DNA of 64,000 bases from an uncultured Methanosarcinales archaeon (GTDB taxonomy: Archaea; Nanobdellota; Nanobdellia; Woesearchaeales; JACPIF01). Both the position numbers and the translations under genes were made by a program. Location of the stretch: assembly GCA_964602245.1 (NCBI GenBank), contig CAZRPY010000006.1, positions 77 through 64,076 on the forward strand. Reading direction: 5' to 3'. The notes beneath the pieces were generated by a model. It was not told the DNA's origin and did no database searches. It saw nothing but the letters and a program-made list of their open reading frames with translations. This document shows, one piece after another, positions 11,826-60,302 of this stretch; the first letter of the stretch is position 1; the number at the start of each line of letters is the position of its first letter.

Positions 11826-14800
11826 TTATTTTGGCTTCATTTTATTACTCTTTACTTTCATAGCTATGAAAATAGCAATTAGCATGGACATAGCAGATGC
11901 TATAATAATCAGCCATATGGTATTGTTTGGCTTTTCCTGCTCTGGCAGTGGTATTTCAACATTTACTGGAACAGTTTTTTCTATTGTATTGCCATCTTGG
12001 TCAAGGGCTGTTAATAATAGATCTCCTGTAAAACTTTTAACTACTGTACTTTTTTCCTTTATTATGAAACCAGTTAAAACTTGTTTTTTGCCCTCAGAAA
12101 TATTCCTAGCTTTAAGCAAAAAGTCCATTGAAATGCCTTTGCTTAAGACAGTATCAGTATAGCTGATATTAAGATAAGAAGCTAAATCTTTTGATAGCTT
12201 TAAATTAACATTTTTTACATCACAATTTCCAGAGTTTTCTATGAAACCTTTTATTAAATCATTCTCAACAAATGATATATAGCCAGGTAGAGCAACATTA
12301 AGCTCATAGCTGCATTTTTCTTCTCTTTTTTCAGGTAGTTTTTCTTCCTGTTTTGGAGTTTTGTCTTCTGTTGGAACTGAAGGAGGTATTACTTCTTGTA
12401 CATCTTGAACTTGTGGTTGAATTTCTTGCTTATCCTCTTCATCACTGCTCCTGCCTCCACCACTGGTTGAAGGGATAGGAGCTTGGCTATGGCTACCAAA
12501 TATTGCATAAGTGCTGGCATGATTGACAGTAACTGTTATAGAATTTTCAGTTGCATTTACTATTGAATTTAGCTCCTGCCATGTAGAGCTTGTTTCATTA
12601 AAATAATAAATTTTTAATGTATTCTCATCTAGTCCTGCTGCTCTCACTTCTTCATCAGTATAATATATTTTTATTGTTAGTGAGCTAATATTCTGCTTAG
12701 TTGCATTGTCTATTACTATGTCCAAGTATTTGCCGAGAGAAGGCATATTTGGAGATGCATTCTTTATGTTACTTGAAAATTCAGTTACAACTATAGAGAC
12801 ATTTGAGATATCTTTTAATGTAGATATTTGTAGTATGGCATTTGCATTTGATATATTGAGATTTATTTTTTCATCTTTTAGCAATTGGATAGAATTATTT
12901 AGGAAAGCACTTTTTGCGTATTGTGATAAAGCAAGAACTGCCTTATTTACATATCTTATTTTATTTCCATAGCTATCTATTAATTCTGGGCTTAAGAGAT
13001 AGGTCCCAGTTGCTAAAGCTCCTGCGTTAATAGAGCCTGTATATATTATTCCATCAGATGAAGAAAGGCTTACAGTACTAATTTCCTTATTTTCTGTACT
13101 AATAAAAATGTTTACAATTGAAATATTATTATCATCTGAGGCGTTTAATGTTATGTTAATAATATCTCCAATGTTTGCTATATTCTTACTTAGTCTCAAC
13201 CCAAATATTCTAGGAGGTATTGAGTCGTAAACACATGATATAGAGCTTCCATTGTCACTTGGTAGGCTATTAGCTGTATTACAATCATTTATGTCAATAT
13301 AATATTTGATTTTTATATTATTTGGAAGGCATGACGTATAATTAATGCTCCACTTTTCGTTGCATGTTTGAGTTTTATAATAAATGCCAAAATCATAAAG
13401 AACAGGAGTATTAGTTCTTTCTGATGCCAGAATTGCCTTTAATCTTATTTTCCCACTAGAAATATTTAATGCGCTTAGATTATTATTTGTTATTAAGTTC
13501 CAGGAGCTGCCTGAATCTACAGAGTAATAGTAAGTAATATTTTGTGAATTTAATAAATCAGATTTTACAAATGAGTCAAAATTTAGCAGTTTGTTAATGT
13601 CAAAATCCTTTGTTTCAATAGCTGCTGATGAAGGATAACTAGTAGTACTGGAGCTAATTGATATTTCATTTAAGACTGGAGTTTTTGTTCCATCACCCTC
13701 AAAAATAGCCAGATATTGGAGCCATTGGTTGCTGTTATGAATATTGTTTAATTTTGTTCCAGAGCTTGTGTAGTAATCCTGTTCTGATGTTGGACCTTGC
13801 CATGATTTGCTGGATAAGTCATTTTGATTACTTGCAGTTCTTATCTTAAATTTAAGTGAAGTTGCTGAAGGAATATCTGCACTAAAGCTTATATTTTCCC
13901 AGTTTGAATGTGGGGTATTATATGCTATTGAAGTGAAATTTCCTGATATTTGATATTTAGTTTCTTCTGGTTCTAAAGATACAGATGGCTCTGGCTCAAT
14001 ATATTTTCTAACAAGAATATCGTCAATATAGCCAATTGCCTGGCTAACTTCAAAAACAATATCTCCAGAATCTTCAATGTCATCATCATTATCTGAGAGC
14101 ATTAGGGCATTGTTATACCAAAGCTTCAGATTTTCATTCCAAACTACAAAAGCTATAGTGAATAACGTTCCATCATGTGGATGATATGTGCTTGTAGTGT
14201 TCTTTATAATGTATTTTGTTCTCTTTTCTTTTGCAATTGCAGGACTCGGGTATTCATTGCCAGAAATATGAACTGTGTAATACTCATCATTTTCAGTCCA
14301 TCTTAAGCCAATGCCAACTGTTGAATTTTCATGATAGCTGCCTGTTACAGAGTAAGTTACTTTTGCATAAACATCCTTTATATTTAGTCCTAGCCTTAAT
14401 CCAGAGTCATGATCATCAGTTGTGTTAAATAAAATTCTGTTATTATCATAGCTAAGGTTCATGAAATTATTGCAGCTGCCATGGTAGCAGAGCCAGTTGC
14501 CCTGTTGATAACTGCTTAAAGTATTTGCAGAGAAATCATCCCACTTTAAGTAGATATTGTTCCTATTAGAAGGGGCATTAGTTGCAGCTGAGTTGCCATA
14601 ATATAAGTAATAATTATTATCTGCTGAATTAGCATTAATTGTTTTTGCTTTGAACCATATTTCTGTAGCAATTGAATTACAACTATTTTCATTAATTCTA
14701 TCTAATTCAATGTTTGCATTTGTGTTGCTATCAAAGTAGACAACTCTTAAATCTTCACAATCAGCTTTTAACTTGTTATTTGCTATGAGATACTGAGTAT

Positions 14801-19355: not shown

Positions 19356-19407
19356 AATTATTTGATTAATCTAAAACTATTAAAACCCTTTGCACTTTCC
19401 TAGCCTT

Positions 19408-20607
19408 ATGCTGTGGACTAAGAAGTATGAGCTTAAGAAATTAGATGATGTTATAGGGCAGGAAAAGGCTATTAAAGAGCTTAAAGAATTTATAGAGAAT
19501 TTTAAAAGGCAGAGGAAAAAGGCTTTACTGCTATATGGTCCAGCTGGAACAGGTAAGACAACAGTGGTTTATGCTCTTGCCAGTGAGTTTAATCTAGAGA
19601 TATTAGAGATAAATGCATCTGATTTAAGGAATAAAGAGCAGATTGAATTAGTATTGGGAAATGCAGTCAGGCAGAGAAGCTTGTTTTTCAGCAGTAAATT
19701 GATTCTTGTTGACGAGATTGATGGCTTAAATACTATGGAAGATAGAGGAGGGATTTCTGCTTTAGCTAAGATTATTGTAGAAACAACATTTCCAATAATA
19801 ATGACAACTACTAATCCTTTTGAATTTAAGTTCAGCTCTTTAAAGAATAAAAGCAAGCTAGTTGCTTTTGATTCAGTTGATCATAATTCAATTTTTAATC
19901 TGCTAAAAAGGATTGCTGATAAAGAGAATTTAGAATATAAGGAAAGTGACTTGAAAAAATTGTCTAGAATGTGCGGTGGTGATGTTAGAGCAGCTATTAC
20001 AGATTTACAGATACTTTCAATAGTAGATGGCAAGATTAATTCAGATGATATTGGGCTGCTTAGCAATAGGAATAAGATTGAGAGCATTATTAATGCCTTG
20101 ATTAAGGTTTTCAAGAGCACAGATTCAAGTATTGCAGCAAGGGCATTTGATAATGTTGATGAGGACATGGATAGCATCTTTCTGTGGATTGAGGAGAACA
20201 TACCAATTGAATACAAAAATGCCAGAGATTTGGCAAATGCCTATGATATGCTTTCTAAGGCAGATGTTTACAGAGGAAGGATTAAGAGGAGGAATGACTG
20301 GAGATTTCTGGTTTATAGCAATTCTTTCCTTACAACTGGCATTGCCTCAGCTAAAGAAGAAAGGTATAGGGGCATTACTATGTATAAGCCAACTGGAAGA
20401 CTGCTAAAGATATGGATGGCTAAACAGAAGAACCTTAAAAGAAAAGCTATAGCTGCTAAACTGGCTAATAAGACACATTGCTCAACTAGAGAGGCTTTCA
20501 GGACCATACCTCTTATAAAGCCATTATTTAAGGCTAATAAGGCTTCTAAGCAATTGGGTTATGAGCTTAATCTTGATAGAGAAGAGTTAGATTGGCTTAG
20601 AAGGTGA
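19408..20607 (+). CDS. rfcL: Replication factor C large subunit (AAA+ clamp loader)
   Basis: MLWTKKYELKKLDDVIGQE..., Walker A GPAGTGKTT, LILVDEIDG. Archaeal RfcL-like C-terminus. Confidence 0.85.
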   Translation: MLWTKKYELKKLDDVIGQEKAIKELKEFIENFKRQRKKALLLYGPAGTGKTTVVYALASEFNLEILEINASDLRNKEQIELVLGNAVRQRSLFFSSKLILVDEIDGLNTMEDRGGISALAKIIVETTFPIIMTTTNPFEFKFSSLKNKSKLVAFDSVDHNSIFNLLKRIADKENLEYKESDLKKLSRMCGGDVRAAITDLQILSIVDGKINSDDIGLLSNRNKIESIINALIKVFKSTDSSIAARAFDNVDEDMDSIFLWIEENIPIEYKNARDLANAYDMLSKADVYRGRIKRRNDWRFLVYSNSFLTTGIASAKEERYRGITMYKPTGRLLKIWMAKQKNLKRKAIAAKLANKTHCSTREAFRTIPLIKPLFKANKASKQLGYELNLDREELDWLRR

Positions 20608-20796
20608 GTGCTATAAGAAGAAACTCTGATATTAGTTTAGTATTAAATATATATAAAACACTATAAAAATACATTATAAATAAAAATCTGTATCTTTATT
20701 GGAATATTAGCAAATAAGATTTAAATATCTGGCTGTTTATATTAGATGATTGGCGCAAGAATAGACAAGAACTAGAAAAAAAGAAATCAAATAATA

Positions 20797-20902
20797 ACTT
20801 GCATTAACGACGCTTGCTATGCAAGCTGTGCGAGAGGTCCGCTTCGGTGATGGAACTTGAATGAAGCGGACAGGTAGACAAAATAAACCAAAAGTGCAAG
20901 TA
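20797..20902 (+). ncRNA. GC-rich structured element, family copy D (minimal three-helix form); structured sRNA or MITE-like element
   Basis: Closing helix acttgca / tgcaagt. P2 gcttgc-tat-gcaagc. P3 gtccgcttc (20837-45) / gaagcggac (20863-71). Conserved acaggtagac. Homologous to 41162-41315 and the other copies. Confidence 0.55.
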
Positions 20903-20946
20903 AATGAAAATCAAGAAATCAAAAGCAAACTCAAAGGTGATCCAAA

Positions 20947-21082: not shown

Positions 21083-21976
21083 CTATTTTCTTCGGTATAT
21101 CCAACCTACTCCTTTTCTTGAGAAGTCGTAACCTACTCTATCCATACCCTCTATAGATTGCAGAGACTTCTGCAATGCGAACGATTGTTCTCTAGCTAAT
21201 TGAGGACCTGGACCTGAAAACTCTAAGTACTCCTGAGCAAAAATTGCATCGAATACTCTGGCTATTAACTCATGATCAAAATTGACTTTCCTTGCTTCCT
21301 GTCTTGTAACATGAGGCTCGCTTCCAAACAAGAGCTGAAGTCTTTGTGGGCTATATCTTGCTCTGGCATGCTTTTCTGCATCAATTCCTGGTTGAGTGTA
21401 GCCAAACCCTTTATTATCTTCTTTAACTTTTAATGGATAAGCGCCATGCTGCATTGCCTTTTTTGCAAGTGGGATGTCATTTTTATTACCTCTTTCTATT
21501 TCTATAGCCACATACTTTATAGGTTTTCTATGAATCTCAAATGATTTTGTGTTTAGATGCCCCTTTAGTCCGCCTACAAGAGTATCAATAACTTCTGTTG
21601 AAACCCCTCTTGCACGAGCAGCATATCCCATAAACATCATAGGCTCACCTTTAACATCTAATAGGCTTCCATAAACTGCAGCGACTGGTCTTCCATTACT
21701 ATCTATTGCAACATAAGTAGCATGTCTGTATGTACTATTAATGACATCTCCTGATGGTACATTCATAAGTTCTCTTTGCTCTTGTGTCATTCGTCTAGGG
21801 GAAGTTTCAAGAAGTCTTTGAGCAAGCATTCTCTTCCTTAAAAACGCCTTATCTTCGGTATATTCAGGGCCTACTCCTCCTTGGATAAGCACCATAGTTC
21901 TATCAAATAGCCTTCTAAATCTATCAGAAGCCTTGTATTGAAGTTCAACAATTTTTACTTCTTGGTCTAAGGTCAT
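21083..21976 (-). CDS. Hypothetical protein (297 aa), visibly higher G+C than its surroundings; weak acetyltransferase-like motif
   Basis: Long ORF with non-low-complexity composition. MFMGYAARARGVSTEVIDTLVGGL loosely resembles GNAT motif A. No firm family assignment. Confidence 0.6.
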   Translation of the reverse strand: MTLDQEVKIVELQYKASDRFRRLFDRTMVLIQGGVGPEYTEDKAFLRKRMLAQRLLETSPRRMTQEQRELMNVPSGDVINSTYRHATYVAIDSNGRPVAAVYGSLLDVKGEPMMFMGYAARARGVSTEVIDTLVGGLKGHLNTKSFEIHRKPIKYVAIEIERGNKNDIPLAKKAMQHGAYPLKVKEDNKGFGYTQPGIDAEKHARARYSPQRLQLLFGSEPHVTRQEARKVNFDHELIARVFDAIFAQEYLEFSGPGPQLAREQSFALQKSLQSIEGMDRVGYDFSRKGVGWIYRRK

Positions 21977-26859: not shown

Positions 26860-26884
26860 TTCTTAAGACACTACGATTAAAAGA

Positions 26885-26958
26885 TGGGGTTGCCCGGATT
26901 TGAACCGGGATCACAAGGCCCCGAACCTTGGATAATAGCCAAGTTATACCACAACCCC
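26885..26958 (-). tRNA. tRNA-Pro (anticodon CGG), no encoded CCA
   Basis: Reverse complement reads GGGGUUG-UG-...-CAAGG-UUCGGGG-CCUUG-UGAU-CCCGG-UUCAAAU-CCGGG-CAACCCC-A. 7-bp acceptor, canonical T-loop, U33, G37. The D-stem is weak and AU-rich. Confidence 0.85.
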
Positions 26959-27044
26959 AAGCAATAATAGAAAATTTAAGCTGATTATTTAAGTTTTGTT
27001 AACTTATTATAAGAATTACATTTAGTACAAATTTTATCTCTTAT

Positions 27045-27240
27045 TTGCACTTTCTTCACAATTGCTATACCTATAGGAAGCCCTGCTTCCTAAATGTCTC
27101 GGAACAAAGGAAATCTCGATTTCCTAGTCTCGAAAATCGTATATTTTCGAAACATAGTTCCTCAACTAGTCCGCTTCATTTATGTTTCTTTGATGATTAG
27201 CGGACCTTGGCAAGGCACGCAGTTCGTGCCCGTAGTGCAA
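27045..27240 (-). ncRNA. GC-rich structured element, family copy C (longest, with an internally duplicated module)
   Basis: Minus strand reads ttgcactacgggcacgaactgcgtgcc...gtccgct...agcggac...gttgaggaac...ttcgagactaggaaatcgagatttcct...gttccgagacatttaggaagcagggcttcctataggta...agtgcaa. Confidence 0.55.
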
Positions 27241-27271
27241 TTATTATTATTAATTGATTAGAGGATTATAT

Positions 27272-32571: not shown

Positions 32572-32659
32572 CTATAGAGAATTTTGATTATCTATCATAT
32601 TTGTCAAAATTCTCTTAGAGAACTTTGAATATATAAGGGTTATTCAAAGTTCTCTATAG
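32572..32659. repeat. Four-motif hairpin cassette, copy 1 (motif CTAWAGAGAAYTTTGA in + - + - orientation)
   Basis: gagaattttga (32577-87) pairs with tcaaaattctc (32604-14). agagaactttgaat (32617-30) pairs with attcaaagttctct (32642-55). The outer motifs are also mutually complementary. Confidence 0.7.
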
Positions 32660-32720: not shown

Positions 32721-33365
32721 ATGGTCTTTGGTATAGGTAAGAAAAAACAGGAAGAAATCGGTCCTAGTGCTAATACACCCCCTATTAATCTAGTAATGAA
32801 TATGAGGCAGCAGGGATTGACTAATAATCAGGTTATACAGAATTTGCAAAGAATGGGGTATCCTCCTAATCTTATCTTTGATGCTTTGAACCAGGCAGAT
32901 ATTAAGGGCAGTGTGCAGCAGATTCCTCCGGATTTCTTACAGCAACCACAGCCGCAGTCGCAGCCACAGCAACTGCAAATGCCAGGTATGGAATTTCCAC
33001 AGCCTCAGGAGCAGGAGGAGGTTAGCAAGGAAAGTGTGGAAGAAATGATAGAAACAATTATTGATGAGAAATGGGAAGAGTTGATGAAGAACATAAATAA
33101 GATAATTGAATGGAAAAACAAAGCTGATGCTAAGGTAGCTTCACTTGAACAGGAGTTTAAAGATTTAAAGGCCGATTTTGACAAGCTTCATAATGCCATT
33201 CTTGGAAAGATTGCTGATTATGACCAGAATATAATTAATGTGGGAACAGAGATTAAGGCTATGGAGAAGGTTTTCCAGCAGATAATACCCACTTTCACAG
33301 AGAATGTTAATGAGCTTTCCAGGCTAACACAGGGTATGAAGAAAGATATCCAAAAGAAAAAGTAA
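32721..33365 (+). CDS. UBA-like N-terminal domain / Gln-Pro-rich linker / coiled-coil protein
   Basis: GLTNNQVIQNLQRMGYPPNLIFDALNQA resembles the UBA MGF/Y-loop pattern. Then QQPQPQSQPQQLQMPGMEFPQPQEQEE, then a heptad-rich C-terminus. Confidence 0.6.
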   Translation: MVFGIGKKKQEEIGPSANTPPINLVMNMRQQGLTNNQVIQNLQRMGYPPNLIFDALNQADIKGSVQQIPPDFLQQPQPQSQPQQLQMPGMEFPQPQEQEEVSKESVEEMIETIIDEKWEELMKNINKIIEWKNKADAKVASLEQEFKDLKADFDKLHNAILGKIADYDQNIINVGTEIKAMEKVFQQIIPTFTENVNELSRLTQGMKKDIQKKK

Positions 33366-33574: not shown

Positions 33575-33672
33575 ACTATAGATAATTTTGAAATATATCA
33601 ATTTTGTCAAAATTCTCTAAGAGAACTTTGAATGAAATGGTAAAAACAAGGGATTATTCAAAGTTCTCTATA
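33575..33672. repeat. Four-motif hairpin cassette, copy 2 (direct repeat of 32572-32659)
   Basis: ctatagataattttga ... tcaaaattctc (33607-17). agagaactttgaat (33620-33) pairs with attcaaagttctct (33656-69). Same motif order, longer second loop. Confidence 0.7.
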
Positions 33673-34842: not shown

Positions 34843-35523
34843 TTAGTGTCCCTCTTTTTTAGGCTCAGCTGATTTTTTCTTATCTCCTGTAACGAGCCAC
34901 ATAAATATAAGTATCACTATTAATAAAATTATCGATGCAACTGCCCTTGAGCTCCAATGATCTACTAAGAAATTCCAAGCAGTTTCTAGCCATGTATCAC
35001 CATCCTCTGTCTTTAAAGCGTTCAGAAAAACACCAATGATGCCAATAAACATTATTACCATAAAAATGATGTTCCATGGGTTAGTTAGGTAAACACCCTC
35101 TGGAGATTCTTTGTGGAAAGCTCCTATTAAGAGAAGGAAAAATACGCCAAGTACTAAAAGTACCACTATCTGTCCAGATACCTGTGTTATAGTCTCTACT
35201 AGCCTGGAAGAAGCAACTACAAGGAAAGAAATTACAAATGCTGCCATAGCATTAAGGTTTTTCCTAGGGTATTTTTTGCCTTCAATCTCTTCTGTGCCTA
35301 GAACCCTGCTTTTCTCAAGTATGGCAAAGACTATAGTAAAGACTAAGAGGAAAGGTAAGACAACATCAAAAATGCCTAACTGATTAAAGAATTCTATTAC
35401 ATTTCTAAAGGTAGAATCTTCAGCCATTAGTAAATTACTTAAAAAGTCAGTATATAAAACTTTCGTAACAAATGATGAGGCATAGGAACTAATGTTCCTG
35501 GTCTCAAACAAAGTTTGAGACAT
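34843..35523 (-). CDS. Polytopic membrane protein, paralogue 1 of a tandem trio
   Basis: About 5 TM helices. Shares its N-terminal motif with 34252-34839. 3-nt intergenic gaps suggest one operon. Confidence 0.6.
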   Translation of the reverse strand: MSQTLFETRNISSYASSFVTKVLYTDFLSNLLMAEDSTFRNVIEFFNQLGIFDVVLPFLLVFTIVFAILEKSRVLGTEEIEGKKYPRKNLNAMAAFVISFLVVASSRLVETITQVSGQIVVLLVLGVFFLLLIGAFHKESPEGVYLTNPWNIIFMVIMFIGIIGVFLNALKTEDGDTWLETAWNFLVDHWSSRAVASIILLIVILIFMWLVTGDKKKSAEPKKEGH

Positions 35524-35607
35524 TTGGAGCCTCAGGCGGCATTCACTTCGTTCAGCCCCCTAAATTAAGTAATAACCTTTATATAAATAAGCATAATAGC
35601 CAATATT

Positions 35608-39701: not shown

Positions 39702-41132
39702 ATGATGAACTTAAAAGAATATATTGCACAAGTTAAGTCAGGAAGCCTAGATATTATTGAGGAAACTCATAAGGCTATAGAAAATGCTAAGAAAATTAAT
39801 TCTATCTATAATTATTTTAATGTTATTTGTGAGGGGCATGCAATAACACAGGCAGAAAAACTAAAGGAGAAGATTAAACAGAAAAAGGCAAATGGAAAGC
39901 TACTAGGTGTTTTTATATCTGCTAAAGATAGCATATGTGTTAAAGATGTTGAGAGTACTGCTGGAAGCAAGATTCTTTCTGGCTATAAGCCCTTGTTTGA
40001 TGCACATGTCATTAAAAGAGTTAAGGAAGAGGATGGCATTATTATAGGAAAGACTAGCCAAGATGAGTTTGGATTTGGAAGCTTTAGCGTTAATATTGGC
40101 ATTGGCTATAAAGTTCCAAAGAATCCTTTTGATTTAGATAGAAGTTGTGGAGGCTCTTCAGGAGGGGCAGCAGGTATAGCTCAGAAAGCTAACTTTGCTC
40201 ATATTTCTTTAGGTGAAAGCACCGGTGGCAGTATTGCAGCTCCTGCATCTTTTTGCAGTGTTTTTGGATTATGCCCAACATATGGCAGAGTTTCTAGGTA
40301 TGGATTAATAGATTTTGGAAATTCTCTGGACAAGATTGGAGCTGTTGGAAAGAGTGTTTATGACACCAGATTATTGCAGTCTGTAATTTCTGGATATGAT
40401 GAAAGAGATAGCACTTCATTAAATGTTAATGAGGAAGATTATACTAAAATTATTGGAAAGAGTTTGAAAGGAATGAAGATAGGTATTATAAAAGAGGCTT
40501 TTGGTAATAATGATGAGGCTGTTGAGAAAAATGTTTATGATGCGATTGAAAAATTAAAAGAAAAAAAGATTGAGGTTGAACCAATTAGCCTAGAATTGCC
40601 GATAAAATATGGGTTAGCTGTTTACTATATTTTAGCAACTTCTGAGGCTTCAACTAATCTTGCAAAGTATTGTGGAATGAGATATGGCATGGCAGAGCAT
40701 TTAGAGGGTAATTTTAATGAATACTTTACTAAGGTAAGGAGCAATAATCTAGGTGATGAGGCAAAAAGGAGAATTATTTTAGGAACATTTGTTAGGATGT
40801 CTGGGTATAGAGATGCTTATTACATAAAAGCTGCAAAAGTAAGGACATTAATGATTCAGGAATATAAAAGGGCTTTTAAGAAATTTGATGCATTAGTTAG
40901 TCCTACTATGCCTATACTGCCGCCAAAGTTTTCTGATATAGCAAAATTAACACCATTGCAGAATTATATGATGGATGTATTATTGCTAGGACCTAATGTG
41001 GCTGGACTGCCACATATGAATGTTCCAGTTGGGTTTGAAGGAAAATTGCCTGTTGGCATGCTGCTAACATCAGATCATTTACAGGAAGGTAAGTTATTGC
41101 AGATTGCTAGCGTGTTTGATGAAAAACAATAA
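39702..41132 (+). CDS. gatA: Asp/Glu-tRNA amidotransferase subunit A (amidase signature)
   Basis: GGSSGGAA amidase signature, SKDSICVKD, GLPHMNVPVG. Confidence 0.92.
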   Translation: MMNLKEYIAQVKSGSLDIIEETHKAIENAKKINSIYNYFNVICEGHAITQAEKLKEKIKQKKANGKLLGVFISAKDSICVKDVESTAGSKILSGYKPLFDAHVIKRVKEEDGIIIGKTSQDEFGFGSFSVNIGIGYKVPKNPFDLDRSCGGSSGGAAGIAQKANFAHISLGESTGGSIAAPASFCSVFGLCPTYGRVSRYGLIDFGNSLDKIGAVGKSVYDTRLLQSVISGYDERDSTSLNVNEEDYTKIIGKSLKGMKIGIIKEAFGNNDEAVEKNVYDAIEKLKEKKIEVEPISLELPIKYGLAVYYILATSEASTNLAKYCGMRYGMAEHLEGNFNEYFTKVRSNNLGDEAKRRIILGTFVRMSGYRDAYYIKAAKVRTLMIQEYKRAFKKFDALVSPTMPILPPKFSDIAKLTPLQNYMMDVLLLGPNVAGLPHMNVPVGFEGKLPVGMLLTSDHLQEGKLLQIASVFDEKQ

Positions 41133-41161
41133 GTAGAATAAAAATAATAGAATAAAAAAAA

Positions 41162-41315
41162 ATTTGCACTATGAGCACGAACTGCGTGCTATATAAGGGT
41201 CCGCTTATCAGTGATGTAACTTCCCATGTAGCGGACATGTTGAAGGAACAATGTTCCGAGACATTAGGAAGCCGCAGCTTCCTACAGGTAGACCCAGTGC
41301 TCACAAATTGCAAAT
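41162..41315 (+). ncRNA. GC-rich structured element, family copy A (five-helix form)
   Basis: Closing helix atttgca/tgcaaat. Hairpins gcacg/cgtgc, gtccgct/agcggac, ggaac/gttcc, ggaagc/gcttcc. Conserved gagac and acaggta. About 46% G+C by hand count in an AT-rich background. Confidence 0.6.
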
Positions 41316-41341
41316 AAAATAAATTGATAATTAAAATAAAA

Positions 41342-42766
41342 ATGAGTAAACAACATTTTATAACTGATATTGTGATAGGTTTAGAGGTGCACGTAGAGCT
41401 AGACTGCAATACTAAATTGTTCTGCAGTTGCCCTACTAAAGGAAGTGAAGAGCCTAATACAAGAACATGTGAAGTATGCTTAGGGATGCCTGGAAGCAAG
41501 CCAGTGTTGAATGAAAGAGCAGTAGAGTATGCAGTTAAGCTTTGTATGGCAACTCATTGTGAGATTTCTCCAATATTAGTTTTCTCAAGAAAATCTTATT
41601 TCTATCCAGATATGGCTAAGAACTATCAGATAAGCCAGTATGAAATACCATTAGGAAAAAATGGGAAAATAGTGCTTAGCAATGGCAAAGAAATTTGGTT
41701 AATAAGGATACATATTGAAGAAGATCCTGCTTCTTTAGTGCATCCTGCTGGAATGAGGGAATCTGGATATGTTCTAGTGGATTATAATAGGAGTGGCAAT
41801 CCATTGGTAGAGATAGTTACAGAGCCTGATATTGCAAGTGCAGATGAAGCTAGAGATTTTATGAAAAAGTTAGTCAGCATACTAAATTATTTAGAAATAT
41901 TTGATTTAAATAAATGTGTTATTAAGGCAGATGCAAATGTTTCTATTAAGGAATCTGGTTATACTAGAGTTGAGATTAAGAATATAACTGGCTTTAAGGA
42001 GATTGAAAGGGCTATTGAATATGAAATAAAAAGGCAGAAAAAAGAGGTTAGTGAAGGAAATAAAATACATCAGGAAACTAGAGCATGGGATTCTGACAAA
42101 GGTGTTACACATTCCCTTAGGAAAAAAGAGGCTGAAGAGGATTATGGATATATCATTGAGCCAGATTTAGTTGTTACAAATATAAGTAATGAGTATCTTG
42201 ATAAAATAAAAGAAAGTTTGCCTGAGCTTGCTGAACAGAAGATTAAAAAGTTTTTAGAGAAGCATGGTATAAAGAAAGAAGATGCAGAGATACTTGCGGC
42301 TGAGAAAGAATTGGCAGAACTATATGAGAAAGTTGCAGAAGATATTAATCCTGAGCTTGCTGCTAAATGGCTAAGAAGGGAGTTAATGAGAGTAGTGCAT
42401 TATAGTGATAAAACACTAAAAGAAATTAAGATTGACGAGAAAAATCTTATTGCACTGCTTGAGTTAATTGAAAAGAAAAGGATTACAGATAAAGTTGGAC
42501 AAAGGCTAATGGAGATGTTAATAGCTAAGCCATTTGATGTTAAAGAATATGTGAAGAAAGAGAAATTAGAAGCACTTGCAGATGTTTCTGAGCTTGAGGA
42601 TATATGTAGGCAAGCTATTGAGGAAAATCCTAAAGCAGTTAAGGATTATAAGGCAGGAAGACTAGAAGCATTAAACTTTATTGTTGGAGCTGTGATGAAA
42701 AAGACTAAAGGCAAGGCAACACCTAAAGAGGTGAATGATATATTAAAAAGACTAATTGGCTTATAA
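41342..42766 (+). CDS. gatB: Asp/Glu-tRNA amidotransferase subunit B
   Basis: IGLEVHVEL, CEVCLGMPGSKPVLN, DYNRSGNPLVEIVTEPD. Start set at MSKQHF. Confidence 0.92.
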   Translation: MSKQHFITDIVIGLEVHVELDCNTKLFCSCPTKGSEEPNTRTCEVCLGMPGSKPVLNERAVEYAVKLCMATHCEISPILVFSRKSYFYPDMAKNYQISQYEIPLGKNGKIVLSNGKEIWLIRIHIEEDPASLVHPAGMRESGYVLVDYNRSGNPLVEIVTEPDIASADEARDFMKKLVSILNYLEIFDLNKCVIKADANVSIKESGYTRVEIKNITGFKEIERAIEYEIKRQKKEVSEGNKIHQETRAWDSDKGVTHSLRKKEAEEDYGYIIEPDLVVTNISNEYLDKIKESLPELAEQKIKKFLEKHGIKKEDAEILAAEKELAELYEKVAEDINPELAAKWLRRELMRVVHYSDKTLKEIKIDEKNLIALLELIEKKRITDKVGQRLMEMLIAKPFDVKEYVKKEKLEALADVSELEDICRQAIEENPKAVKDYKAGRLEALNFIVGAVMKKTKGKATPKEVNDILKRLIGL

Positions 42767-46003: not shown

Positions 46004-46100
46004 CGTCTTATTTTCATATTCTTTGACGAACTAGTTTATAAATGTTGCGGAAAATAAGACGAATTCCGAGACTAGGAATCAAGTTCCTATGTTGAGGAAA
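46004..46100 (+). repeat. Fragment related to the structured-element family (copy F): 12-bp hairpin plus a ccgagac-taggaa/ttccta-tgttgaggaa module
   Basis: cgtcttattttc (46004-15) pairs with gaaaataagacg (46050-61). attccgagactaggaatcaagttcctatgttgaggaa matches the inner module of copy C. Confidence 0.4.
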
Positions 46101-46114
46101 TTTTCTGTGGTAAG

Positions 46115-46807
46115 TCATACTTTCTCCAGCTTTATTATCTGGTCTATCTCAAGCCTGGAGATTGAGCAGCCATGAAGCTTTACACCCCATAGAACGCTTT
46201 CCAATAAGACTTTCTTAGCATTTGGAATATCTGCAATAAAGCTGTCAAGAATGCCGAGCTCAAAAGCCAATGTAACAAGTTCTGAAGATCTTATTATTTT
46301 TATATCTCTATTTAGTAGATTCTTAAAATTTGATAGAGCATCATGATTGATGTCCACTTTTATATTTAATCTTTCACTTAAAATTTTCTTGAGCAAATGA
46401 GGGCCTTCAATTAAAAGCCTAGTTGTTCTCTCGTCAATAACAAGCAGATCAGAATTATTAATTGCTGTAGCTGCAAGAGACTGCATCTCAGCATGCTGTA
46501 CTATAACTAAATTTTTCTTTTCTGAGATATAAGCATGGTTTGCATAGTCTAATAATTGTAAAGACTTTTGTTTTATGTCAAATGAGTCAATAACTTCTAG
46601 AGTTCCATTTTTAATTATCTCCATTATCTGCAGAGCCTCAAACTTGAACCTTTTTGTTGCAATAGGATGCTCAACTAACTCATATTTAGACGCTTTAGTA
46701 ATGTAAAAATCACCTTTATATGCCTGCTTTAGCGGCTTAAGAATCCAGAGCAAATTGTTAGTTGTAAGGCTAATTACAGGGCCAGTGTCAAAAACTATGT
46801 TCCTCAT
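46115..46807 (-). CDS. PIN-like domain protein (predicted nuclease)
   Basis: MRNIVFDTGPVISL N-terminus and a later VIDERTTRLL acidic motif are PIN-like. The family is not firmly identified. Confidence 0.4.
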   Translation of the reverse strand: MRNIVFDTGPVISLTTNNLLWILKPLKQAYKGDFYITKASKYELVEHPIATKRFKFEALQIMEIIKNGTLEVIDSFDIKQKSLQLLDYANHAYISEKKNLVIVQHAEMQSLAATAINNSDLLVIDERTTRLLIEGPHLLKKILSERLNIKVDINHDALSNFKNLLNRDIKIIRSSELVTLAFELGILDSFIADIPNAKKVLLESVLWGVKLHGCSISRLEIDQIIKLEKV

Positions 46808-48691: not shown

Positions 48692-48838
48692 TTATTTAAT
48701 AATCAATGATATAATTTATTAATATTATGTTGTGTAAAAGAGTAGTTACTAGCATTCCTAACTTTTCTTAACAGAAAAGTATATATACAGTATGTTTTAG
48801 TAAGACGCACTAATACTAGTTTTAAGGTGTTGGTTTTA

Positions 48839-49471
48839 ATGTTAGATATAATACCTAAGTTCATAAAGAAAGTTCTGAATGCATTATTTAAGAGGAAGAG
48901 GCATATTAAGCTTGGCTTGTATGGGCCGCCTAATGGTGGCAAGACTACTCTAGCAAATAGGATATGCCAAGACTGGCTAGGAGAGGAGATGGGCAACGTC
49001 TCTAGTATACCTCATGAGACACGAGAAATAAATGTAAAAGAGCAGATTAATGTCAAGAGCAAGGGTAAGGAACTGTCATTTAGCTTAATAGACACGCCAG
49101 GTATAGCTACAAAGATAGATTACGAGGATTTTATGAAATCTGGAATGACAGAGAGCTTGGCAAAGAAAAGAGCAAAAGAAGCTACAAGGGGGGTTATAGA
49201 TTCCATAAAATGGCTTGATGACATGGATACAGTAGTAATAGTGCTTGATGCAACTAAAGATCCTTATTCCCAGGTCAATATCACTATTGTTGGAAATTTA
49301 GAGGCAAGAAAAATTCCTGTGCTGATAGTTGCAAATAAAATAGACCTGAAAAGAGCTAATTTAAAGAGAGTCCAGGCAGCATTTCCTCAGTACAGTGTTG
49401 TAGGCATATCAGCTAAGCGCGGTGATAATATAGACAAATTTTATGAAGCTTTATTTGTATTAGCAGGCTAA
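48839..49471 (+). CDS. Small P-loop GTPase
   Basis: G1 GPPNGGKTT, G3 DTPG, G4 NKID. AAGGTG SD lies 9 nt before the ATG at 48839. Confidence 0.8.
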   Translation: MLDIIPKFIKKVLNALFKRKRHIKLGLYGPPNGGKTTLANRICQDWLGEEMGNVSSIPHETREINVKEQINVKSKGKELSFSLIDTPGIATKIDYEDFMKSGMTESLAKKRAKEATRGVIDSIKWLDDMDTVVIVLDATKDPYSQVNITIVGNLEARKIPVLIVANKIDLKRANLKRVQAAFPQYSVVGISAKRGDNIDKFYEALFVLAG

Positions 49472-49472
49472 A

Positions 49473-49871
49473 ATGCTAACCCTACAATTTATTCCGCATA
49501 GTGAGATTGAGCATCTTGGAAGTGCAAGAAGGGTTAAAAAACTGCTTGATTTAGTTAAGCAAGATAAGATTGTATTGCTTGAGGGGAGGCTAAGAGAGCA
49601 AGAGGAAAAAGATTTAATAGAAATTACAATGGAGGAGATTGATAATAAGTTTAAGGGCATAGAGCTTAGTGTAGTGTATCCTGATAATAAAAGTAATAGC
49701 TTATTAAAGAAGCTAAAGCATGGAATGATTAAGGCATTACTTGGATATAGGCAGGGGTTAACAATAATAGGGCCTGCCTCTATAGTCAAGGAGATTAAGA
49801 AGGATCCTGAAAAGATAGAATTATTAATAGTGGATAAGAGCAAAGGTAAAAAGAGAAAGATTAAAAGATAA
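49473..49871 (+). CDS. Conserved archaeal protein, DUF2073-like (from memory)
   Basis: Follows the GTPase with a 1-nt gap. I recall this family as the usual neighbour of such GTPases in archaea. Not verifiable here. Confidence 0.5.
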   Translation: MLTLQFIPHSEIEHLGSARRVKKLLDLVKQDKIVLLEGRLREQEEKDLIEITMEEIDNKFKGIELSVVYPDNKSNSLLKKLKHGMIKALLGYRQGLTIIGPASIVKEIKKDPEKIELLIVDKSKGKKRKIKR

Positions 49872-49883
49872 TATTATAATAAA

Positions 49884-50076
49884 TAATTTGCATAACGAGG
49901 CACGAGTTAGCAAGTACAGAACTGCGGTTCTGTAAGTACCTGCGTGCCTTTACCATAAGTCCGCTTATCCATGATGTATTGTGTGGTAGCGGACAGGTTG
50001 AGGAACTGCGTTCCGAGACCTCCGGAAACCATAGGTTTCCGACAGGTACTACAATAAGTCACAAAGTTGCAAGTTA
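49884..50076 (+). ncRNA. GC-rich structured element, family copy B (P2 carries an extra nested hairpin)
   Basis: taatttgca/tgcaagtta closing helix. aggcacg...cgtgcct with an inner acagaac/gttctgt hairpin. gtccgct (49959-65) / agcggac (49988-94). gttgaggaac-tgc-gttccgagac. cggaaacc/ggtttccg. acaggta. Confidence 0.6.
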
Positions 50077-50159
50077 ATATTAATAAATTGAATAATATAT
50101 ATTAAAATAAAATTTAATAACACTAAAAAATAAGAAAAATCTAATAAAAAGTGATTAAC

Positions 50160-50573
50160 ATGCCTCATCAATGTGTAAGATGTAATACTTTCTACGCAGA
50201 TGGTTCTAATGAAATATTGACTGGATGCAATTGTGGTGGCAAGCTATTTTTCTTTATGAAGCAGGAAAAGATGGAGGAATTGAAAAGGCTGCAGGAATAT
50301 GCTAAAAAACTAAGTTCAAAAGAGAAGCAAGAGATTGAAGAGGATATCTATGAAATTGCTGGAAGCGAGATAGACAGGACTGAACCAGTTGTCCTTGACT
50401 TGGAATCTGTCAGAATAATTGAGCCAGGAAAATATGAAATTGATTTAGTCCAACTCTTTAAAGGAGAGCCTCTGATATTTAAGCTTGAAGAAGGCAAATA
50501 TATGATTGACTTGATAGAGACTTTTAGAAGCATGGGAAAGCAGAAACAGACAAATAGGAAAAAAAGAGGCTAG
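50160..50573 (+). CDS. Zn-ribbon-containing protein (DUF2072-like, from memory)
   Basis: MPHQCVRCNTFY...GCNCGGKLFFF zinc ribbon followed by an acidic helical region. Confidence 0.55.
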   Translation: MPHQCVRCNTFYADGSNEILTGCNCGGKLFFFMKQEKMEELKRLQEYAKKLSSKEKQEIEEDIYEIAGSEIDRTEPVVLDLESVRIIEPGKYEIDLVQLFKGEPLIFKLEEGKYMIDLIETFRSMGKQKQTNRKKRG

Positions 50574-60057: not shown

Positions 60058-60129
60058 AATGGATTATTATGAAAATAAATTTAAAAACAATTAAGATATA
60101 AAAGAATAAAGAATATTAAAAGATAATAA

Positions 60130-60266
60130 CTTGCACTACGACGCCAACTTCGTTGGCTGTGCCATTAGTCCGCAACCGTTGTGCCAATTATAAGATATAA
60201 AAATTATAGGGGGATTACAAATTAAGTGATTAAAATAATAGCACTAAAATAAACAAATTTGCAAAT
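60130..60266 (+). ncRNA. Structured-element family copy E (5' half and 3' tail conserved, central P3 degenerate)
   Basis: cttgcactacgacgccaacttcgttggctgtgccattagtccgc parallels copy D. The 3' tail actaaaataaacaaatttgcaaat parallels D's acaaaataaaccaaaagtgcaagt. No gcggac partner is present. Confidence 0.4.
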
Positions 60267-60302
60267 TATATAAAACTCAAATAAAATTCAAAAATAATAG
60301 GG

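Follow-up and report, generated by a model that had tools for sequence, protein, structure and literature searches.

A dispersed family of multi-hairpin intergenic repeats, probably mobile, in two related archaeal lineages

The DNA analyzed here (hereafter called the window) is a 64,000-nucleotide stretch from an uncultured archaeon (assembly GCA_964602245.1, contig CAZRPY010000006.1, positions 77 to 64,076 of the forward strand), carrying housekeeping genes that include those for aminoacyl-tRNA synthetases (aaRS), gatCAB, oapABC, and pilus ATPases. Our subject is a dispersed family of structured intergenic elements, whose reference member, copy A, occupies 158 nt (41160–41317, plus strand) of the spacer between the gatA stop codon at 41132 and the gatB ATG at 41342. 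A preliminary description of this DNA, made from the letters alone, had presented copy A as a GC-rich island folding into a closing helix with four hairpins inside; its coordinates and all of its helix strands agreed base by base with the sequence, and the G+C content of copy A is 0.45, as compared with 0.336 for the whole window. The full element consists of a scaffold with three helices, P1, P2, and P3, and a double-hairpin module, P4-P5. The 5' strand of P1 (41162–41168), which is the left terminal inverted repeat, pairs with 41309–41315; P2 (41174–41190; AGCACG-AACUG-CGUGCU, stem 41175–79/41185–89) is hypervariable and always paired; P3 (41199–41236; GUCCGCU...AGCGGAC) is the best-conserved helix, and its loop hosts nested insertions; and the P4-P5 module (41237–41285) lies between GCGGAC and AGGUAGAC, comprising in order P4a (AUGUU/GACAU), P4 (GGAAC/GUUCC, 41245–49/41253–57), GAGAC, P5 (GGAAGC/GCUUCC, 41267–72/41277–82), and UAC. 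The predicted fold of copy A has an energy of −54.6 kcal/mol (z = −5.05), and an identical copy A is present in an independent ENA assembly (locus L081).

The window holds five scaffold copies (A–E) and two solitary P4-P5 modules. A covariance model (designated R1) that had copy A as its single sequence and used the helices of the preliminary description scored copy A itself at 209.7 bits and recovered copies C (E = 8e-14), B (1e-13), and D (6e-7), the next match being at E = 0.6; moreover, the motif GTCCGC..GCGGAC is seen four times in the window against 0.00 expected. Copies B–E were found at the positions that had been claimed for them, and the folding z-scores of copies A–D are −4.5 to −7.3. 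Copy B (49884–50077, plus strand), in the oapB–oapC spacer, combines the scaffold with a 37-nt hairpin extending P2 and the P4-P5 module, and scores 110 bits with a scaffold covariance model (designated R2) made from five copies of the sister lineage described below together with copy B. Copy C (27041–27243, minus strand; z = −7.3), 3' of a gene for a trypsin-like protease and 82 nt upstream of tRNA-Pro, carries a second module nested in its P4 loop. Copy D (20795–20903, plus strand; 57.7 bits with R2) is a minimal scaffold of P1, P2, P3, and the tail without the module; its neighboring genes, 19390–20607 (plus) and 21083–21976 (minus), are convergent, contrary to the earlier statement that every full copy lies between co-directional genes. 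In copy E (60127–60269, plus strand), between T2SSE-like and T2SSF-like genes, P1, P2, and the 5' strand of P3 are intact and the 3' half has decayed (z = −1.4; 28.5 bits with R2). One solitary module (46048–46093, plus strand; CGGAA/UUCCG, GAGAC, GGAAU/GUUCC) is antisense to its flanking genes; it had been described as a longer fragment of the element and is a complete P4-P5 module rather than a piece of the scaffold. The other (35481–35525, minus strand; GUCUCAAAC/GUUUGAGAC, then GGAAC/GUUCC, UAUG) lies in a divergent spacer. A 48-codon open reading frame (ORF; ATG at 41172 to TAA at 41316–18) covers copy A almost exactly; as the equivalent frames of copies B, C, and D hold stop codons, a protein-coding element was rejected and the ORF was taken as a coincidence.

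GatB of the window is at most 72% identical to that of any of 185,579 species genomes, the nearest all being metagenome-assembled genomes (MAGs) of Woesearchaeota/Nanoarchaeota, and the window is accordingly assigned to a Woesearchaeota-like DPANN archaeon. A strict P4-P5 pattern had no match in these 185,579 genomes and none in the JGI metagenomes, and R1 matched nothing in the gatB loci (1.2 Mb) and pilus-ATPase loci (0.55 Mb) of relatives; every sister copy present in the loci searched with R1 was missed, because the P4-P5 module dominated this model. The 26-nt core of the P2-extension hairpin of copy B matched in six contigs, all belonging to one MAG, GCA_964491335.1 (CAZBGH01). The P3 pattern matched about 25 contigs of the same MAG; elsewhere it matched once each in unrelated genomes, almost exclusively G+C-rich bacterial ones, and these matches were taken as chance. 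R2 detected 43 copies at E < 0.01 in the 247 kb of window plus sister loci, of which the sister lineage accounts for 38 and the window for 5; the 1.77 Mb taken from more than 120 other relatives contained no R2 match. Real and abundant as the family is, it belongs to two related lineages only, a distribution that may make it a strain or lineage marker in groundwater metagenomes.

The family matches no Rfam entry, among them tRNA, SRP, RNase P, C/D, H/ACA, small ribozymes, and HEARO, in agreement with the preliminary description, which could not fit it to several known RNA classes. In Rfam searches nothing reached the gathering threshold in the window; relaxing the cutoff to E ≤ 10 for copy A brought up noise alone, and the 58 kb of sister loci, searched at E ≤ 0.1, yielded no family other than tRNA. 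In the window ARAGORN found tRNA-Pro and no other tRNA, and a tRNA-like origin was rejected. A kink-turn (C/D-like) RNA was sought by eye in P3 and the P2 extension of 12 copies, where RUGAUG-like words occur in some P3 loops and neither the bulge length nor the opposing GA is conserved; an archaeal bulge-helix-bulge intron does not fit P1, which is an unbroken helix of 7–9 bp without bulges in copies A–D. Among DNA elements, integron attC was rejected on its R'/R'' boxes, which do not fit, and IS6-type ends on having TTGCAA alone in common, in the wrong orientation. Two chance pattern matches, with no covariance-model match, were all that viral contigs yielded for a viral origin or vector.

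At the ends of 39 aligned copies stands a 10-nt terminal inverted repeat, ATAAYTTGCA/TGCAARTTAT, which forms P1 and is spelled A(T/C)AAT(T)NGCA ... TGCAA(R)(K)TAT across these copies. Inside P1 follow an ACGA(C) joiner, P2, a UGUGCCAUUA-like joiner, P3 (GUCCGCY...RGCGGAC), and an A-rich tail, AGGUAGACAAGGUAACCAAAC; the scaffold measures 110–145 nt, and the whole elements, non-coding and multi-copy, 109–220 nt. Onto this scaffold modules are set. The P4-P5 module, a double hairpin of about 45 nt (hairpin, GAGAC, GGAA..UUCC hairpin, UAYRG), has a fixed position from GCGGAC to AGGUAGAC in copies A, B, and C and in the sister copy at L173; it is missing from copy D and most sister copies, in which the scaffold reads GCGGAC|AGGUAGAC. 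In copy B the module is bordered by the direct repeat GACAGGT, and that of copy C is duplicated within its own P4 loop. The 37-nt P2 extension (GUUAGCAAG-UACAGAAC-UGCG-GUUCUGUA-AGUAC) occupies the P2 loop of copy B and many sister copies. Moreover, whole copies are nested in the P3 loop of other copies at L135, L234, L145, and L164, and since identical junctions recur at these four loci, the composites have themselves multiplied. This mosaic, nested build is the typical look of mobile repeats. One P2 subtype exists in two loop-flipped forms within the same frame, GTCAC-TTT-GTGT and GTCAC-AAA-GTGT (L135:4518–4560 versus the flanks at L137 and L164), which are mutual reverse complements and suggest hairpin inversion at the DNA level.

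The maintenance of the helices was measured on an alignment of the 43 copies, which was itself fitted to the covariance model. Standard pairs filled 89.4% of the 949 pair cells, as compared with 30–41% when the 3' partners were slid by 1–3 columns; cells with changes on both sides numbered 78 against 24.6 ± 3.8 in shuffled alignments, and none of the 500 shuffles reached any of the observed measures. Both-side changes occurred at 17 of the 30 pairs, in agreement with the compensatory changes asserted previously. By helix, P1 was paired in 81% of cells with five of its nine pairs altered on both sides, P2 in 93.5% with double changes at all four pairs, and P3 in 96.5%, its closing pair being U-A in 20 copies and C-G in 13. 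The frame of P2 is filled by at least nine different stems, all paired: GCACG/CGUGC, GCUUGC/GCAAGC, GCCAAC/GUUGGC, GCUCAC/GUGAGC, GCCUUC/GAAGGC, GGCUCU/AGAGCC, CUCAGC/GCUGAG, GCUCAG/CUGAGC, and GCCU/AGGC. The preliminary description had read the window variants correctly, namely gcacg/cgtgc (A and C), gcttgc/gcaagc (D), and gccaac/gttggc (E) for P2, and ggaagc/gcttcc (A and C) and cggaaacc/ggtttccg (B) for P5; taken as a whole, the dispersed family with a conserved multi-hairpin architecture that it proposed is genuine.

The covariation by itself does not single out RNA folding of the sense strand, because the single mismatches are symmetric, with 32 G·U and 31 A·C and no preference for sense-strand wobble; this symmetry is what neutral decay of individual copies gives. 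Furthermore, a single template switch during replication can alter the two arms of a hairpin together (PMC8794818), so that an apparently compensatory change is possible without selection on an RNA. The sense strand folds slightly better than the antisense strand in copies A–D, and the best-conserved hairpin, the 37-nt P2 extension, carries on the sense strand C(UGCG)G, a UNCG-type tetraloop closed by C-G. The ten occurrences of C(UGCG)G are copies of one module and therefore count as a single observation.

A strand preference is evident in the placement of the copies, as scored with simple ORF calls. Of the 23 copies flanked by co-directional genes, 21 have the sense orientation and 2 are antisense (two-sided binomial, ~7e-5), confirming the bias that had been noticed in the window; five other copies lie between convergent and two between divergent genes. 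Most copies sit just 3' of stop codons (median ~85 nt), and the next gene begins 7–300 nt downstream. The orientation tracks the local genes even for copies C and D, which are opposed and 6 kb apart, and is therefore not a replication-strand effect. The sense strands of 44 copies contain only two T-runs of at least four and none of at least five, against 51 and 10, respectively, on the antisense strands; base composition would give about 17 T4 runs on the sense strand by chance, and A-runs are at expectation. U-tracts are the archaeal signal for transcription termination (PMC8716108), and no terminator-like sequence was seen after copy A. On the simplest reading, the copies are read through as part of the mRNAs of neighboring genes, and any insertion causing termination within an operon is lost.

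Comparison with relatives revealed both filled and empty sites. In the closest relatives by GatB (L082, 83%; L084, 85%), gatA and gatB overlap or lie 15 nt apart and the site of copy A is empty, element A with its A-rich flanks being extra sequence in the window; the gatA–gatB spacer is absent in most other relatives too. The copy E site is empty in L085, a JGI metagenome contig of the sister lineage. The 46-kb module corresponds to a clean 49-nt gap in L082 (window ~46055–46103), with the spacer conserved on either side and ATGTTG(C/A)GGAAA bordering the gap on both sides. Thus, three of the four sites checked in sister-lineage contigs are empty (A, E, and 46 kb), and that of copy B is filled; conversely, the sister lineage has a copy upstream of aspS, where the window has none. 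At the B site, the oapB–oapC spacer of a relative with 78% identity in OapC holds a copy with the same 37-nt hairpin and without the module (L135:4579–4721). Common ancestry of this insertion is not established, because copy B is no nearer to this counterpart (84.7% identity) than to a paralogue in L139 (87.2%), and because the spacer in L133, a closer relative (OapC 87%), is only 95 nt long and shows a vestige of the 5' end at best. The oapB–oapC spacer of the sister lineage has expanded to 593 nt, in which a nested copy lies together with a split outer one and four end-fragments in tandem, TAGTTGCAAAG. As a separate observation, L082 has an insertion of its own at 13950–13985, orthologous to window ~45965, which is a 32-nt unrelated hairpin (CCCTGAAAA-GTTTCT-ATTTTCAGG) in the same spacer that gained the P4-P5 module in the window.

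We consider it probable that the element is a mobile structured intergenic repeat resembling a miniature inverted-repeat transposable element (MITE) and filtered for harmlessness when transcribed. The family displays a restricted distribution, filled and empty sites, terminal repeats, a modular and nested build, decay, maintained helices, a sense bias, and avoidance of T-runs; new copies have arisen at AT-rich intergenic sites, and their complement varies from one sister genome to the other. As to mechanism, a transposase recognizing the terminal repeat would move the copies in trans, and the copies would be co-transcribed within the flanking mRNAs, so that only insertions folding compactly and permitting read-through would persist inside the operons of a compact genome. 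The helices would presumably be kept paired by selection on propagating copies, and template switching in replication may add to their maintenance by repairing both arms at once. The conserved functional RNA gene or class implied by the preliminary description, on the other hand, does not agree with a distribution confined to the window's own lineage and one sister MAG, nor with three empty sites out of four, inverted-repeat ends, the mosaic and nested build, and the decay of copy E. The meaning of the family accordingly shifts from a new functional RNA class to a new family of a known type of element.

The family is like prokaryotic MITEs in being small, non-coding, multi-copy, and intergenic, with terminal inverted repeats, lineage-specific filled and empty sites, and nesting. 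Its density of seven units in 64 kb, about 100 per Mb, matches the ~105 MITEs per Mb that a census counted for a Woesearchaeal genome (PMC11602168). Several observations, however, weigh against this assignment. Of the five defining features of a MITE, four are present or compatible; the fifth, a partner transposase, was not found among the 20 window ORFs scanned, nor among 221 ORFs of 30 sister loci, the two sets together covering part of either genome, and neither a multi-copy ORF nor a transposase-like ORF bounded by the termini was seen in 175 kb of sister loci. A scan for target-site duplications over boundary offsets with k = 2–8 gave at best 15 matches against a permuted expectation of 8.4, in A+T-rich flanks, and no duplication was resolvable, in contrast to the clear 7-bp duplications of a second MITE present in the sister lineage. 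A clear direct repeat in flanking position was seen only at the module of copy B (GACAGGT). The copies are diverged (52–94% identical) and not near-identical, and their interior consists of branched local hairpins kept by compensatory change, neither a long palindrome nor arbitrary filler, whereas a classical cut-and-paste MITE needs no such internal hairpins. Finally, copies in the two genomes are 80–87% identical, with the 37-nt hairpin essentially invariant, and coding DNA is ~80% identical; an identity at or above that of coding DNA requires either that active copies be under purifying selection or that the lineages have exchanged copies recently. The pattern named in advance as the mark of a plain MITE, near-identical copies with clean empty sites, is thereby only half present, the empty sites being clean but the copies diverged and their structure maintained.

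The second MITE just mentioned is of the classical kind, about 175 nt long with copies 90–99% identical (L085:1489–1691, L137:2602–2794, and L141:4479–4645, L137 and L141 being contigs of GCA_964491335.1). Its terminal inverted repeats, ACGGCTCTGTCCTAAA..TTTAGGACAGAGCC, are 16 nt long, its target-site duplications include CTCCATA, and the word ATGATGTAAAC in its center recurs in the P3 loops of the present family.

Repeats of comparable construction are known from bacteria. ERIC/IRU, BOX (with its modular boxA-B-C), REP/BIME, Correia, and RUP elements are co-transcribed with flanking genes and fold as RNA; they are modular or mosaic, with a variable number of modules in BOX, have conserved stems, and prefer 3' untranslated regions (UTRs) and inter-cistronic spacers, and the REP-type elements depend on RAYT genes. 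The present family resembles ERIC/BOX/REP-type repeats in its modular hairpins, conserved stems, intergenic location, and, presumably, co-transcription as RNA, and differs in being archaeal (DPANN), in showing no sequence relation, and in having no RAYT gene seen. The P4-P5 module in turn resembles the GC clusters of yeast mitochondria (PMC4478555), double-hairpin elements, and the repetitive hairpin-forming elements of sponges (PMC2800124), with which it shares G+C-rich (double) hairpins in A+T-rich spacers, mutual insertion, and the lack of an identified transposase; unlike these organelle elements, the family resides in a cellular archaeal chromosome, within a scaffold bounded by inverted repeats and with a strong sense bias.

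A possible but unlikely alternative is that the copies are cis-acting RNA elements of 3' UTRs and inter-cistronic spacers that spread because they benefit the host, whatever moved them, by stabilizing mRNA against 3' exonucleases, marking processing, or binding a protein via the 37-nt cUGCGg hairpin. The 21:2 sense bias with most copies just past stop codons and the depletion of T-runs on the sense strand alone agree with such a role, but the purging of polar insertions also yields an orientation bias and T-run avoidance. Similarly, the strong covariation and the better folding of the sense strand in copies A–D favor an RNA, but the G·U and A·C mismatches are equally frequent (32 and 31). The P2-extension hairpin, nearly invariant between genomes whose proteins are only ~80% identical and capped on the sense strand by a UNCG-type tetraloop with C-G closure, and the lack of a match to any Rfam family would suit a new regulatory element. 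Yet the genes to be served are unrelated (gatA/gatB, oapB/oapC, pilus ATPase, protease, and tRNA), the closest relatives lack the element at the corresponding sites, copy E shows decay in situ, and the nested and truncated copies resemble insertion debris rather than designed domains.

A related proposal, which we regard as quite improbable, is that the family represents RNA-level domains, for example protein-binding punctuation for the processing or stability of polycistronic mRNA, or modules spreading from loop to loop via an RNA or single-strand intermediate without a classical transposase. The near-invariance of the 37-nt hairpin, the sense bias, the avoidance of T-runs on the sense strand, the maintained helices, and the failure to find a transposase in the ORFs covered are what speak for it. 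If true, it would define a new class of archaeal regulatory domain embedded in mRNA.

Mobility as single-stranded DNA hairpins, driven by a Y1/HUH enzyme (IS200/IS605 TnpA or RAYT-like) and making the family an archaeal analogue of PATEs or REP/BIME, appears distinctly improbable. It would explain why P2 conserves pairing and not sequence, its nine or more stems all being paired, and the symmetric G·T and A·C mismatches would follow from the involvement of either DNA strand or from neutral decay. The loop-flipped variants CAC-TTT-GTG and CAC-AAA-GTG, the lack of a detectable target-site duplication, and the same short A-rich motif (ATAA/ATAAA) preceding nearly all copies fit as well. IS200/IS605 elements and PATEs are, however, without terminal inverted repeats and have subterminal hairpins, whereas a 10-nt terminal inverted repeat is present here; no Y1 or RAYT-like ORF occurs among the scanned window ORFs or in the sister loci, which cover part of the genomes; and the strong strand bias, which fits such a mechanism, tracks the local genes and not the direction of replication, as the opposed copies C and D, 6 kb apart, demonstrate.

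It is very improbable that the copies are separate genes for small RNAs, members of one paralogous family that are transcribed from promoters of their own and act in trans. TATA-like boxes (TTTAAATA, TATAATAA) do stand directly upstream of many sister copies, and the fold is compact and stable with no T-run inside the sense strand. However, the boxes end 3–11 nt before P1, which would place the transcription start about 20 nt within the element and exclude the covarying 5' strand of P1. The window copies show no box at a constant distance, the elements are not followed by a T-run terminator, and the sites are polymorphic between sister genomes and the copies decay.

Under the reading as a mobile, MITE-like repeat, the most instructive features are the strength of the covariation and the transcription-compatible design. 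DPANN genomes are very small, yet this lineage carries about 100 copies of a structured repeat per Mb inside its operons, which offers a natural case for how a compact archaeal genome tolerates mobile DNA, the survivors being sense-oriented, free of T-runs, and compactly folded. For the discovery of RNA genes, the family gives a caution: G+C-rich islands that fold excellently and covary significantly can be mobile repeats, and an RNA function is not proven by covariation alone.

Several observations concern the surroundings of the copies. The genes for a GTPase, OapB, and OapC (window 48827–50573) form the 'origin-associated' oapABC cluster, with copy B between oapB and oapC; an origin of replication with origin recognition boxes (ORB boxes), which this vicinity brought to mind, was rejected, the copies being scattered over 40 kb and many contigs. 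The 297-residue ORF beside copy D (21083–21976, minus strand) and the 230-residue ORF beside the 46-kb module (46115–46807, minus strand) gave no Pfam match at E ≤ 0.001; the latter is kept in the sister lineage, with only a faint DUF3368 match there. The tRNA-Pro(CGG) near copy C (26883–26959, minus strand) has the same orientation as that copy, and in the sister MAG a copy at L221:5130–5245 lies 142 nt upstream of a 110-nt tRNA match (L221:4879–4988, minus strand) that presumably contains an intron. A different palindromic repeat occurs twice in the window, at 32572–32658 and 33576–33672 (~80% identical), flanking a gene (32721–33365) for a Q/P-rich low-complexity protein; each of its copies contains two inverted repeats, TAGAGAATTTTGA..TCAAAATTCTCT and GAGAACTTTGAATA..TATTCAAAGTTCTC.

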